Below, one piece after another: positions 46,293 to 51,668 of a stretch of DNA of 64,000 nucleotides (positions within the stretch are counted from its first letter, which is position 1; each line of letters starts with the position of its first letter). Made by a program: the position numbers and the translations under genes. This DNA is from Naegleria gruberi (lineage: Eukaryota). Location: the NCBI GenBank assembly GCA_000004985.1, contig GG738848.1; one strand, written 5' to 3'. The notes beneath the pieces were generated by a model that was given only the letters and a program-made list of their open reading frames with translations, did not search any database and had not been told where the DNA came from.

Positions 46293-49200
46293 TTAATTAA
46301 AGGTTGTTTCCAGATTTTGATTATCAGCAGCAATCAAATCAGTTTGCAATTCGTCTGATTCTGCTCCATGTTTCAAAAATTCATCCAGGACATATTGTTG
46401 CTCAGCTTTGGAAATGTTAGATTTAGCATGATGCTTGGCACTCAAAAAGTAGCTTTGGGTTGGTTTTCCTTTAATCTCAATCTTCCTCTCCTCAAATTCA
46501 AAATCCAAATCATACACTCTCTCATAAGTTGATCTTGATAAATGAATCCTTCCAGGTTGAGAATTTGATTCCATTCTGGATCCAACATTAATAGTTTCCT
46601 AGAATGACATGTTTAAATATCAACAATACAGTATTGAAATACTTACACCCCACAAATCATATGCAAATTTCTTGGTGCTATTATTTGTTAATATTTAAAT
46701 TTCTAGAAACACTTACCCAATCACTCCAGCAATTGCAGCTCCAGTATTGATACCCACACGAATATCTACTTGATTAAAGTCAGAACTGGAAAAGGTATTT
46801 GCTTGAACTAATTCTTTCATTTTGGAAAGATTGAATTCTCTAATGACACTAAAAGTTTCAATACTAAATCTGAGTACTCTTTCTGGGTGATCACTAGCTT
46901 GCATCTATTAAATTATTATTAGAATTAAAAGAAGAAATGAATTATATACATACCAATCCTCCAACACAGAAATATCTAAATATTCAAATCCATAGAATTA
47001 ATGTCATAAACTAGAGTCTCGAATTTACTTACGCATCTCCAATAGTTTTAATCTTTTCCAATTCATACTTGTCAGTCAATTTATCGAATCCTGTAACAAT
47101 TGTACTCAACATTTGAACAACATCATTGGCACTAAGTGAGCTAGATAATTTAGTAAATCCAACCATGTCACTGAAAAAGCAAGTGATATCAGGCAACTTG
47201 TCAGCAATTAATTTCTCTCCCTAAAATAGATTAGATATTGATAAATATAAATAAATGTAATACTTACACTTTTCAATTGTCTGGCAACAGATTCTGGTAA
47301 CACGTTTCTCAGTAACTTTTCAGAATTCTTCTTCTCTTCAGCTAATAATGATTTTGACTTGTTTTCAGATGTGATATCTCTTATGAAACAGGTAATGACT
47401 CTGTTATTATCGAATAGAGTGTAGGAAATGCTCACTCTAGCTGGGAAAGTAGTCCCGTTCTTTCTTATACATTCCAAATCTAAAGTTTCTCCCTGAATGG
47501 CATTCTTTTCTGAGGCTAGTGAAGAATCTACTTGAACTCTATTTTCAATCAACTTTTTAATTGTTTCCTCACAATTTGGATTGAAGAGAGACCACAATGG
47601 TTTTCCAATTACATCCTCAGGCAATTTACCAAACATTCTTTGGGCTGCAGGATTGTAAACTTCAATATCATAATCATTACATGATACTGCTCCATCTACA
47701 GCAGAATTAAGAATGGACTTGACCTTTAAATCTTCAACCTCCTTCTTATTGAGACTGTTCGCGCCTCTAGAGGAGGAAAATATCTTGTGGTATAGAACAT
47801 AATTTCTCATTTCATCCTTTGCTTCCAAATGATCAATCTTGATATAGTTCAGCAACATTCTCACAGTTTGAACCTCATTAACATGTTTGTCAAAGGAGAG
47901 GACAAGTAAATAGCCAAACAGTGGAACTAAAAAAAATCCAATAACTCCAAATATTGTTACAATAGTAGAACTGTTATCTCTTTCTATGGAACTAACGTAA
48001 ATATTCATAAATTGTTCGAATTCCTTTGCCAACACTTTACAATCAGTGAAAAGTGCATGGAACTCTGGGAATATACTGTACATGTCCTTGTTCTTAGCAT
48101 TGTGCTTTTCATTGATAATAATTGATTCCAGATAGAGTTCATTCATCTTATCATTCAAGCTTGTACACTTCATGGTAGTCGAATTTGAATTTTCACAGTG
48201 AGCTCCCTTGATGAGATTGTCAACCTCAGAAAATAACCCAATTAGTGGCGCAGCATTGGTTGTAATATCGCCATACAATAGCAAATTCCACTCCTTACTA
48301 ATCTTCTTCTTGATTTCATAAACTGATTCATGATATTCAACAACTTCATCCATTGAAAGTAATTTCTTAGAGTTGATTGAATATGTATCGTACGGAAGAA
48401 CAGAAAATATTAAAACCTCTCCAACTTTCCCTGTAATATCATGAGCATCTACTGAGATTGATGCAGAACGTTCCACATTTCTCATAATTCTCTCAGTTTT
48501 ATCAGAGGTAACAAAAACTTCATAAAAGAACATGGAAAAACACAAACAAGTAGTAATGAAAATAAGAGTTGTAAATAACGATGCTCTAAACTTGGGATTG
48601 TTGGTAAAGTTGGATTTGTATGCTCCCTCTCCATTCTCTGCATATTTCGTAGCCATTTGGTGGTAGATCTTTCCAAGAGCATCTTTAGGAATTGTCTTTT
48701 CAACGAGTTTTAACACGGATTTCAAAGATCTCATTATCAACAAGTTGAATATCAACATTAGACCACAAGATATTACTAGTAATCCCAAAGAGCAGAAATA
48801 AAAGTACATGAAAGCATTATTGGTATTACTGACAGTGGCATAGGATCTATCTACAATGTTTGAGCAAAACTCTTTGAATACTGAACTGAAAATATCTCTA
48901 TTGTGCCAAAAATACATGGCTTTGTAATTGGAGAGAGTATTGTTATACTGCTGAGGTGTATAGGTATTGATTTCCTTTAAAAATTGTATCAAAGTGTTGG
49001 TGATTGCTGAAATGGAAGTGTTAAATTGATGTGCAACAGTGTATTCTCCTGGGTATGGACCAATAACAGGATTATAGAAAAGGACACTACTCTCTGAATA
49101 ATCATGAAACATGTCATCACTCATTAAGTCATTCAGAGCGCTGTTTTGAAGCTCCTGTAATGAAGCTAATACATCTCGAATTCTTTCTTTGTGCTCAGTT

Positions 49201-51668
49201 GAAAAGTTGGCCGCTCCTGCATCAATAAGAGATTGAGGCATCATCTGTACTGCATTGTTATTATATAAAGTGAATAGTAATTGCTCCATTCTTATGTCTA
49301 ATTGCATACTCAATGTGGTAATAGAAGGCATACAGGATATTTTGATTAATTTCACATCACTTGTTGAGTTTACCAATAAGGCGATGGAGAAGGAAAAACC
49401 AATAATAAACAATAAGAAAAACAGAGCTATAGAGGATATAATGCAAGAGTAGGTAAACTTATTGTCAGAAGGAGTGGCAAGAGCTGATCTGTACAACATT
49501 TCCTTTTTCAATTGTGGATCTTCTGCAGCTTCCAATCCCATTTTGTCACCAAAATCTTCCTCAACAAATTCTTTTGAATAACCATTTTCCAATCCGTCAA
49601 TCTTTGGTTTTGTAGAGTTTTTTTCCATATTTTTGATTTTAGAAGAGAGTGAGGCTGCACTCTTGGAAATTGATGATCTACTGTCTATTGAAGATCTTGA
49701 ATCATCGTGTGTGGCCCTCTCTTTCAAAGGTACTACCTTATTTCGCATGGAACCTTTTACACCACCAACTGGAGCTTTTGAAATTCGTATCTCTCCTTTT
49801 ACAGTTTCTTCATTCTCAATATCATTGGCTTCCTGATACAATTCTCCTGCTCTCAAATTGTTAAAAAGAATGTTATCAAGGAATTTGCCATACATTCTTA
49901 GAACATTCTTGTCATTACTGAAATCTTTCATCAGATTTTCAAAGGTATTCTCAGTATTAAAGGTCAATTCTGTGATTTTTCTGTTAATTTCCATAACCTT
50001 ACCGTAATTGATTTCCATATTGAAAAATTCCTTCCAAATAGCTTTGTGAAGAGCTAGAATGGAATTGTATTGCTTTTCCAGCTTGGCAAGGATGTGTTTC
50101 ACGTCAACAATACTCATTCCATGTGAAGAATCACTGTTTCTTGATTTGTGGAGTGAAGTTTCAATTTCTTTCAATCTTTCTCTCAAAGTTATTCCTGAGA
50201 AGAAATTCAATTTTTGTTGTTTAACTCTTCTCAATAATCCCAAAGCATATTCATGTGAACCTTCTTCCCAAATGTAAGAAGCTATCAAAGCTGATGAAAT
50301 AATCAATTCTGGTTCTGCAAATGATTTGTGTTGAGCAACTGATTTGATGAATGAAACCGCCAATTGTCTATCACTAATATTATATGCATTTGGCGATGCC
50401 TTCTTACCAGAAAACATTGCAAACTTTAAAAATAGTCCAAGTCTATTCAGTCTCTTTTGCTCCACAAAAGATTTGAAGAGAGAATGACCTCCCCGCTCAA
50501 AATATGTCAATACTGACATTCCAGACCTATCATCAATAGATTTTTCATAACAATCATTCAATAGCATCAACATTTCCTTTCTGATTGAATAATAGAAAAA
50601 CCGTGTGTATGCCTCCATCAAAACAAATCCCCCTAGAAAGCCAATAATCATCAGACCTACTGGAATGAAAGTAAAACCAAGTCCCATATCCCATGAATCA
50701 TTTGAATTTAAAAGAAATGCAATCATTGACCCTATTGGTGAAAGTACCTTTGCAAACAAAACTCCACTCCAAATTGAATTTTCCATTCTCACAAAATAAG
50801 GCAAAAAGTAAAACAAGCAGGGAGCTATGGTTATGGATAACACAATATGAAGCACTGATCTTCCATACATGTACTGATTTGGAATTACATAATTCAATAA
50901 AATTTGCAATTGACTAATTGATAAAAACATGGAAAAGAAGAATGGTGATTCCATTATAAATGGTGATGTGTTTTTCAAATGAGTATTTCCTAATATTTGT
51001 CCATAAATAATAGTATTAACAATAGAAATCAAGATACCAATAATTCCAATAACCATCAAAACAATAGAAGCAACTGATTGGCACATTACAGATGGAGCTC
51101 TCATCAATACATTCTGAGGGTCATCATAATTCTCAAATGACATTTGTGTGGTATAGTCACAATCGAGAAAGGATGTCATTGCAAAAGTACCAATCAAACA
51201 CACAAAGAATTGAATATTTCCATAGTAAAATATACAATTTCTCAATAGTTTCATATTTCTACTTGCAATTTCAACAGATTTAGCTGTCAAGACAAAAATC
51301 ACAAGTCCCAAAATTGAAAAGCAAACAAACAAAACCTCAAAAGCAATTAACCCCTCATAAGGAACCTTATCAATTGACAAGGTTATCAAATAATTAAAAA
51401 CTCTCCAAATCCAATCGCCATATTCTCCCCAATGAAATGAACCCAACATTCCAATTCCCAACGAGGCCAAAATTACATAAACATTCAAGACAACAAAATA
51501 AATGTAATTCTTCATTCCCTTCCGAGGAGTTTTATCTTCAATTGAGACAATCATTGAGAAGATACTCTCCTTCAATTTTATAAGACTCTCCCTTCTTGAA
51601 GTATAACTCGATGAAGAGGAGGTAACTGAGGTATTGGCAGAAGAGCCCATATAGTTACTTTCAGCCAT
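46293..51668 (-). CDS. Multi-pass membrane PAS-domain class III nucleotidyl (adenylyl/guanylyl) cyclase; 6 exons including 22-nt and 31-nt micro-exons
   Basis: Exon 1 is 47268-51668 from ATG: >10 hydrophobic helices in two clusters, then a PAS-like region (…DIEVYNPAAQRMFGKLPEDVIGKPLWSLF…ECIRKNGTTFPARVSISYTLFDNNRVITCFIRDITSE) and LLRNVLPESVARQLKS. Intron 47221-47267. Exon 2 is 47033-47220 (GEKLIADKLPDITCFFSDMVGFTKL…EKIKTIGD). Intron 46976-47032. Micro-exon 46954-46975 (AYFCVGGL, completing the GDAY motif). Intron 46905-46953. Exon 4 is 46717-46904 (MQASDHPERV…VGINTGAAIAGVIG). Intron 46678-46716. Micro-exon 46647-46677 ([10 protein letters not shown]). Intron 46599-46646. Exon 6 is 46293-46598 ([21 protein letters not shown]…). 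All junctions are GT-AG with consistent phases, and the spliced product restores the canonical cyclase motifs. Confidence 0.8.

Follow-up and report, generated by a model that had tools for sequence, protein, structure and literature searches.

Positions 46293..51668 of a 64,000-nucleotide (nt) stretch of Naegleria gruberi DNA (contig GG738848.1, assembly GCA_000004985.1; the whole stretch is referred to below as the window) very probably hold a functional six-exon gene of strain NEG-M, encoding a receptor-type class III (IIIa-like) adenylate cyclase (AC) of 1711 amino acids (aa). The gene lies on the minus strand, and joining its six exons by scripted splicing followed by translation gave an in-frame coding sequence of 5136 nt. 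Two of the exons are micro-exons, and it is they that complete the GDAYFCVGGL motif and a second motif of the cyclase domain, contributing exactly the missing residues.

The micro-exons and the cyclase domain

An initial annotation, made from the letters of the window alone, had proposed this micro-exon gene model, and scripted splicing reproduced every one of its coordinates as well as its intron lengths of 39-57 nt, its GTAAGT or GTATGT donors and its consistent phases (Table 1). The donors are GTAAGT in four of the five introns and GTATGT in the remaining one; the acceptors, described there as AG, are TAG in all five. The intron phases are mutually consistent and the six exon pieces contain neither a stop nor a frameshift. 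Left unspliced, exon 1 appears in the mechanical list of open reading frames (ORFs) as a 1486-aa ORF that reaches 19 codons into intron 1. The 22-nt exon finishes an Ala codon (GC/A) and then encodes YFCVGGL, the predicted spliced junctions being GGAGATGC/ATATTTCTGTGTTGGAGGATTG/ATGCAAGC or, with longer flanks, ...ACTATTGGAGATGC/ATATTTCTGTGTTGGAGGATTG/ATGCAAGCTAGTGA..., and the 31-nt exon finishes a Gly codon (GG/C), with predicted junctions GTGATTGG/CACCAAGAAATTTGCATATGATTTGTGGGGT/GAAACTATT or, with longer flanks, ...GCTGGAGTGATTGG/CACCAAGAAATTTGCATATGATTTGTGGGGT/GAAACTATTAATGT.... Two sources place the size limit of a micro-exon at 27-30 nt in strict definitions and at 51 nt in a wide one (PMC7821500, PMC8378409); the 22-nt exon falls within every definition and the 31-nt exon within the wide one only. 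Exons 2 and 4 (47033-47220 and 46717-46904) are both exactly 188 nt long, probably by coincidence.

The spliced protein has a single continuous match to PF00211 (Guanylate_cyc) that runs from profile position 5 to 182 of 183 (E 2.8e-49), with a score of 167.6 bits against the Pfam gathering cut-off of 21.9. When the 17 residues encoded by the micro-exons are deleted in silico, the domain score falls from 173 to 123 bits, and in the product that skips the 22-nt exon the match shrinks to profile positions 5-69. Both micro-exon segments align without gaps in a 13-sequence alignment that includes Naegleria, Acrasis and cyanobacterial homologues, bacterial cyclase genes being expected to lack spliceosomal introns. 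A metagenomic contig of a related amoeba (L002) encodes the cyclase domain in a single uninterrupted genomic ORF with GDAYFAAGGL, which also aligns gap-free to the window protein. Retention of any one of the five introns brings an in-frame stop after 0-20 codons and, as read from the sequence, alternative AG acceptors close upstream of each micro-exon would likewise introduce in-frame stops. There are 26 GTAAGT hexamers on both strands of the window, four of which are the predicted donors and lie within 650 nt. Annotated introns in paralogues from N. fowleri and N. lovaniensis, 44-108 nt long, show the same style, with AG acceptors and with GTAAGT, GTATGT or GTGAGT at the donor site, and very short introns of 9-95 bp are reported for Acrasis kona, a related heterolobosean (PMC11589745). 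Judged on these signals and alignments, the micro-exon structure exceeds what chance would produce.

The initial annotation had further held that the micro-exons complete the catalytic motifs and contribute catalytically essential residues. Both segments do restore their motifs, and D1607 is indeed encoded by the 31-nt exon; the metal-binding Asp of GDA (D1529), however, is encoded by exon 2, and the 22-nt exon carries no canonical catalytic residue. It encodes the strand following the second metal Asp and is needed structurally and for the reading frame.

Because neither length is a multiple of three, both micro-exons would be obligatory, constitutive exons: skipping of either shifts the frame and brings a stop at codon 1559 or 1652, within 30-50 codons. 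Such stops leave the receptor and PAS parts intact, and the two exons might instead be regulated cassette exons that are alternatively skipped, the resulting mRNAs being degraded or giving a receptor truncated within the cyclase that would act as a dead decoy or a dominant-negative dimer partner. The micro-exon literature describes very short exons as intrinsically hard for exon-definition splicing. The short flanking introns seen here, with strong consensus donors and TAG acceptors, favour intron definition, however, under which exon length is of little weight; small exons of 10, 48, 68 and 78 nt are included in annotated full-length paralogue models, and nothing in the data shows micro-exon skipping. 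We consider regulated skipping improbable, and prefer constitutive inclusion, in which each short intron would be removed independently by intron-definition splicing and exon size would be no obstacle.

Predicted catalysis and substrate

Catalytic residues were assigned by alignment to the solved C1 and C2 domains of mammalian AC8, AC5 and AC9, which are the best solved-structure matches of the window catalytic domain (E 1e-51 to 1e-58). The metal-binding Asp pair comprises D1485 in FFSDMVGFT and D1529 in KTIGDAY, aligned with the Asp residues of the C1 domains of these three enzymes, whilst the base-specifying positions are occupied by K1525 in EKIKTIGD and D1607 in YDLWG, aligned with the Lys and Asp of mammalian AC C2, the K938/D1018 pair. 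The transition-state residues N1614 and R1618 (INVGSRM) align with TVNVASRM of AC C2, and a KGK motif is present at 1653-1655. The class III cyclase assignment of the initial annotation was thereby borne out, the near-full PF00211 profile being matched with the metal Asp and substrate-specifying residues in place.

Some observations would fit a guanylate or dual-specificity cyclase instead: PF00211 covers both activities, the signalling helix ahead of the catalytic domain has a weak HNOBA-like Pfam match (aa 1437-1465), and the atrial natriuretic peptide receptor and soluble guanylate cyclases are also significant matches. Guanylate cyclases carry Glu and Cys at the base-specifying positions. 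The Lys and Asp found there in the window protein, aligned with those of AC C2, and the ranking of AC8, AC5 and AC9 as its best solved matches argue against guanylate or dual specificity, which we regard as unlikely. The Lys/Asp pair predicts ATP as the substrate and cyclic AMP (cAMP) as the product of an adenylate cyclase.

A class III cyclase with the full set of C1-type and C2-type residues in one chain acts as a homodimer with two symmetric sites. Since the single catalytic domain of the window protein carries both types of residue, a homodimer would be required, in which the catalytic domain would form two symmetric active sites. Mammalian membrane ACs, in contrast, are pseudo-heterodimers in one chain, of the form 6TM-C1-6TM-C2 (TM, transmembrane helices); the window protein does not conform to that type, having one PF00211 domain at its C-terminus, 8 + 4 TM helices that all lie upstream of it, and large ectodomains. 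A helical transducer element ahead of the catalytic domain is found in AC5, AC8 and AC9 and in the window protein alike. Bacterial PAS- or receiver-linked class III cyclases (from Microcoleus, Planktothrix, Dapis and others) resemble it in their PAS-signalling helix-cyclase module, which is 35-49% identical with gap-free catalytic motifs and the same K...D substrate pair, whereas they are only 350-560 aa long and lack the 12-TM receptor part.

The receptor part

The upstream part of the protein was examined by hydropathy, by Pfam profiles and with two AlphaFold2 monomer models built on family alignments (aa 1-623, predicted local distance difference test score (pLDDT) 87.2; aa 730-1310, pLDDT 83.8); the fold comparisons below are based on these predicted monomers. 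Hydropathy and models together give 8 + 4 TM helices, in agreement with the two membrane clusters of the initial annotation, and its combination of membrane clusters, PAS and class III cyclase was upheld by profile matches, hydropathy and comparative alignments. The N-terminal cluster has a small predicted extracellular hairpin between Cys170 and Cys196, both of which are conserved columns. The TPR region that follows passes the Pfam threshold for the Dictyostelium TmcB family (PF25474, 53 bits against a cut-off of 27), a comparison confined to this region, and helical repeats are seen there in the AlphaFold2 model; a literature search on TmcB function found nothing relevant.

By hydropathy and model, TM9-TM12 lie at about 747-765, 961-979, 1035-1053 and 1239-1257, and bound two all-helical ectodomains of ~195 and ~185 aa. 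In both ectodomains a pair of Cys residues is conserved, joined in the second by a conserved NCT site, features which fit the extracellular location assigned to both. With 8 + 4 TM helices, the TPR region, the PAS domain and the cyclase would then all be cytosolic. No sequence similarity was found between the two sensor modules, and an internal duplication was rejected. A Foldseek search of the sensor model against the PDB returned no match below E 1e-3; the closest known systems for the sensors include bacterial four-helix-bundle and NIT-type periplasmic domains (NasR NIT, Tar, PcaY, TorS).

The PAS domain called in the initial annotation scores above the gathering threshold with both PAS_9 (66 bits against 27) and PAS (31.4 bits against 22.6). 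Its closest solved sequences are the FixL haem-PAS domains (E 2.7e-7). FixL-like haem sensing was rejected: the window protein has no counterpart of the proximal His of the F-alpha helix that ligates haem, Ile standing opposite the EHD-motif His in the alignment to Rhizobium meliloti FixL (1d06).

From these parts we propose that the protein crosses the membrane 12 times, as an 8-TM bundle followed by the cytosolic TmcB-type TPR region and then by two TM-ectodomain-TM modules, and that each of these modules would expose a bundle of helices, held together by a disulphide bond, on the outer side of the membrane. The bundles would respond to a ligand or a physical cue, with a second input perhaps entering via the cytosolic PAS domain, and the signal would travel from TM12 via the PAS domain and then a coiled-coil signalling helix, reaching the catalytic domain at the C-terminus. 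TM12 and the signalling helix would thereby shift in register or rotate, which may set the activity of the cAMP-forming dimer, whilst the 8-TM and TPR module could serve as a scaffold or as a second sensor.

A heterolobosean receptor cyclase family

An exhaustive phmmer scan of 1.84 billion representatives gave 124 cluster representatives (E below 1e-30 for 50 of these), with 38% identity at best. Collinear alignments over most of the 1711 residues were obtained with some 40 proteins, which are 1400-1800 aa long and belong to N. fowleri, N. lovaniensis, N. gruberi and Willaertia magna, and BLASTP alignments span about 1500-1700 residues in at least 14 proteins of the three Naegleria species. 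The initial annotation had called the build unusual; the same collinear order in ~40 heterolobosean proteins contradicts this, and the architecture is the standard build of a heterolobosean multigene family, whose members are annotated merely as hypothetical or 'Guanylate cyclase domain-containing' proteins. A very large cyclase repertoire, of at least 81 cyclases, is reported for Naegleria (PMC9928731), and heteroloboseans are described as rich in cyclase and PAS domains (PMC11589745).

The closest full-length relative is N. fowleri FDP41_003313 (XP_044562704, 1808 aa; 39% identity over ~1650 collinear residues), annotated as a 'Guanylate cyclase domain-containing protein' and with TPR_TmcB, PAS_9 and Guanylate_cyc in the same order as in the window protein. 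It differs in having only two introns, none of them corresponding to window introns 2-5, no micro-exons, and a long insertion in the cyclase domain. FDP41_003313 is a possible orthologue of the window gene; no shared neighbours were seen between the two loci.

Within N. gruberi, the closest paralogue is represented by two models on one 216,243-bp scaffold, P0132 (EFC37347, 631 aa), which matches the N-terminal part of the window protein, and P0001 (606 aa), which matches the C-terminal part; these are probably one paralogous gene split into two models. A Willaertia magna homologue (JBEGDK010000015.1) is likewise annotated as two genes, of 1404 and 209 aa. There (6660-6830) the metal-Asp codon of FFSDMVGFT is split by an intron (TCTG/GTAAGT...TTTTAG/ATATGG), and an extra T in a T-run just upstream of this intron breaks the frame, which may reflect either an assembly error or a pseudogene. 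The split models in these two species mark the family as troublesome for annotation.

The window gene itself is probably unannotated, or at least absent from the collections searched. Three ORFs flanking the gene are identical to proteins of N. gruberi NEG-M on a 712,659-bp scaffold, and a fourth falls in a 90%-identity cluster with EFC49293 (Table 1); the neighbouring loci on the scaffold are NAEGRDRAFT_62548 and NAEGRDRAFT_45866. A C-terminal search for the protein model of the locus reached 62% identity at most, and neither the N-terminal 1300 aa nor the TPR region gave any match in word-index searches, so that no identical model is present in that database; an exact look-up of the 1486-aa ORF also failed to find it. 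UniProt D2V1E6, which belongs to the accession series of the neighbours, could not be placed, and a GenBank model for the locus is therefore possible.

Intron positions across the family

In order to compare intron positions, annotated proteins were mapped to their loci with an exact spliced mapper, the positions were projected onto the window protein and the boundaries inspected, for eight genes comprising the window gene and seven related genes. Intron 1 (phase 0, after 1467) is common in position and phase to FDP41_003313 (KKLKN/GETF versus RQLKS/GEKL), and intron 5 (phase 0, after 1610) to N. fowleri FDP41_001627. Near intron 3, N. lovaniensis C9374_007051 has an intron 1 nt upstream and N. 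fowleri FDP41_011611 one 4 nt upstream. Conservation of intron 1 in Willaertia was rejected, since the Willaertia intron lies 18 codons downstream, in the metal-Asp codon. Further intron sites within cyclase motifs are found after TKK (two genes), after FAY (contig L001) and, in FDP41_011611, after the first base of the codon for Asp in YDLWG.

FDP41_011611 (XP_044567394, 1711 aa) and C9374_007051 share the architecture of the window protein at 33-34% overall identity, and the same motif region is cut in them by short introns with GTAAGT or GTATGT donors, at positions 1 to 10 nt off those of the window gene or unrelated to them. In FDP41_011611 a 10-nt micro-exon, TTTGCATATG (N. fowleri VFQX01000009.1, 5543-5552), encodes FAY plus one base within KKFAYDLWG, lies between introns of 72 and 83 nt, and is part of the public protein model; C9374_007051 has exons of 48 and 78 nt in the cyclase domain. 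Micro-exons are a family trait, already captured by at least one annotation pipeline. The statement in the initial annotation that gene finders miss such exons accordingly fails for the NCBI model of FDP41_011611, which holds the 10-nt exon, and fits the window locus, for which no protein model was found. A literature search for Naegleria micro-exons found nothing relevant.

Within ~190 codons the eight genes have 16 distinct intron positions, only four of which are common to two genes. Several are separated by just 1-4 nt within one motif: VGGL has three positions in a span of 5 nt, and KKFAYDLWG has four in a span of 22 nt. Three or four introns of the window gene are absent from FDP41_003313, and all of them are at the 3' end, the 4.4-kb 5' exon being uninterrupted. 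It is conceivable, though less likely than not, that the cyclase domain of this receptor family is a hot spot of intron turnover. The extra introns of the window gene could be either gains or survivors of an intron-rich ancestor, eight genes being too few to decide. An introner-type origin of introns 1-5 was rejected, pairwise alignments giving z of -0.3 to 1.2 against shuffles, and no further copies of these introns were found in the window beyond 11-19-nt AT-rich chance matches.

Weighing the gene model

Several points weigh against reading the locus as a functional adenylate cyclase gene. Splicing is predicted from the sequence, and the removal of introns 2 and 4, which have no counterpart in any of the seven related genes, is supported by signals, frame and homology only. 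The exact spliced 1711-aa product was absent from a collection of 15 billion proteins. Two motif positions deviate, both conservatively, E1611 standing where WGDT usually has Asp and G1616 where ASRM usually has Ala, and the PAS segment NPNCEETIKKLIENRVQV has no His and so lacks the haem-ligating residue. The activity of the enzyme and its preferred substrate, its dimeric state, its topology in the membrane and the signal sensed are all inferred.

A pseudogene in decay, or a mis-assembly, in the 3' part of the gene, with the five insertions unspliced and only the 1486-aa ORF (receptor and PAS) made without a cyclase, would fit the absence of a protein model and of transcript-derived support in the collections searched, and is nonetheless very improbable given canonical donors, TAG acceptors and consistent phases at five of five interruptions, six exon pieces free of stops and frameshifts with every catalytic residue kept, an identity of these pieces to homologues (55-62%) like that of intact paralogues, and two intron positions common to annotated paralogues.

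Other features of the window

The window opens with 74 perfect tandem copies of AAACCC (1-446), and over positions 1-2000 the GC skew is -0.45. Read on the opposite strand as TTTGGG, the repeat is telomere-like, and it is oriented as for a left chromosome end; from the array and its orientation the window appears subtelomeric. According to a 2013 survey, N. gruberi telomeres were a subject on which no information was available (PMC3622300).

A second receptor-type cyclase is encoded at 15508-20532 (+), as a 1674-aa ORF with Peripla_BP_6, ANF_receptor and Guanylate_cyc domains. Its Guanylate_cyc match ends at profile position 150 of 183, nothing obvious was seen of a spliced 3' continuation downstream of the ORF, and on this pattern the domain may be degenerate or a pseudo-cyclase. 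On the minus strand, 8055-13088 holds a 1677-aa ORF with EGF-like, GPS (G-protein-coupled receptor proteolysis site) and C-terminal RGS domains, whose product looks like an adhesion-receptor-like seven-transmembrane RGS protein of the kind described for N. fowleri (PMC9283941). At 29896-31311 long ORFs overlap on both strands (471 aa, minus; 325 aa, plus), neither with a Pfam match, and imperfect 27-63-nt tandem repeats occur at 30202-30772. In this stretch local GC reaches 0.38, with an AT skew of -0.18.

Table 1. Coordinates in the window of the predicted cyclase gene, of the regions of its product and of other annotated features.
Feature	Position	Strand	Description
Whole gene	46293..51668	-	ATG at 51668, TAA stop at 46293-46295; 6 exons, 5 introns
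Exon 1	51668-47268	-	4401 nt, aa 1-1467; 8-TM cluster, TPR region, two sensor modules, PAS, signalling helix
Intron 1	47221..47267	-	47 nt, phase 0, GTAAGT...TAG, S1467/G1468 boundary
Exon 2	47220-47033	-	188 nt; cyclase domain start; D1485, K1525, D1529
Intron 2	46976..47032	-	57 nt, phase 2, splits A1530 codon
Exon 3 (micro-exon)	46975-46954	-	22 nt, (A)YFCVGGL, aa 1530-1537
Intron 3	46905..46953	-	49 nt, phase 0, GTATGT...TAG, after L1537
Exon 4	46904-46717	-	188 nt, aa 1538-1600
Intron 4	46678..46716	-	39 nt, phase 2, splits G1600 codon
Exon 5 (micro-exon)	46677-46647	-	31 nt, aa 1600-1610; includes predicted adenine-specifying D1607
Intron 5	46599..46646	-	48 nt, phase 0, after G1610
Exon 6	46598-46293	-	306 nt including TAA stop; N1614, R1618, KGK at 1653-1655, C-terminal tail
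N-terminal cluster	50619..51515	-	aa 52-350; 8 predicted TM helices (hydropathy and AlphaFold2 model)
TmcB-type TPR region	49803..50150	-	aa 507-622, predicted cytosolic; PF25474
Sensor region	47898..49430	-	aa 747-1257; TM9, ectodomain, TM10, short cytosolic link, TM11, ectodomain, TM12 (predicted)
PAS domain	47370..47693	-	aa 1326-1433; PAS_9 and PAS
Flanking ORF	40389-41708		identical to N. gruberi NEG-M EFC49150 (712,659-bp scaffold)
Flanking ORF	45787-46260		identical to N. gruberi NEG-M EFC49152 (712,659-bp scaffold)
Flanking ORF	52296-53492		identical to N. gruberi NEG-M EFC49153 (712,659-bp scaffold)
Flanking ORF	53665-54876		in a 90%-identity cluster with EFC49293
tRNA-Met (CAT) gene	32089-32160	-	

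Significance

The locus reveals neither a new kind of protein nor a new splicing mechanism, micro-exon splicing being ordinary for the family and for short-intron protists; what it offers the N. gruberi reference is one gene model to be corrected or added. If the two micro-exons are overlooked, the locus looks like a receptor devoid of a cyclase or like fragments, as in the mis-split N. gruberi and Willaertia relatives, and counts of Naegleria cyclases depend on how exons of 10-31 nt are treated. The gene model also makes a testable prediction: the receptor cyclase should be a homodimer specific for ATP and should have two helical bundles outside the cell as sensors. Should the extra introns prove to be recent gains or slides, and not the outcome of differential losses, the family would offer a natural setting in which to study intron gain and movement, and the origin of frame-shifting micro-exons, in an intron-poor protist.

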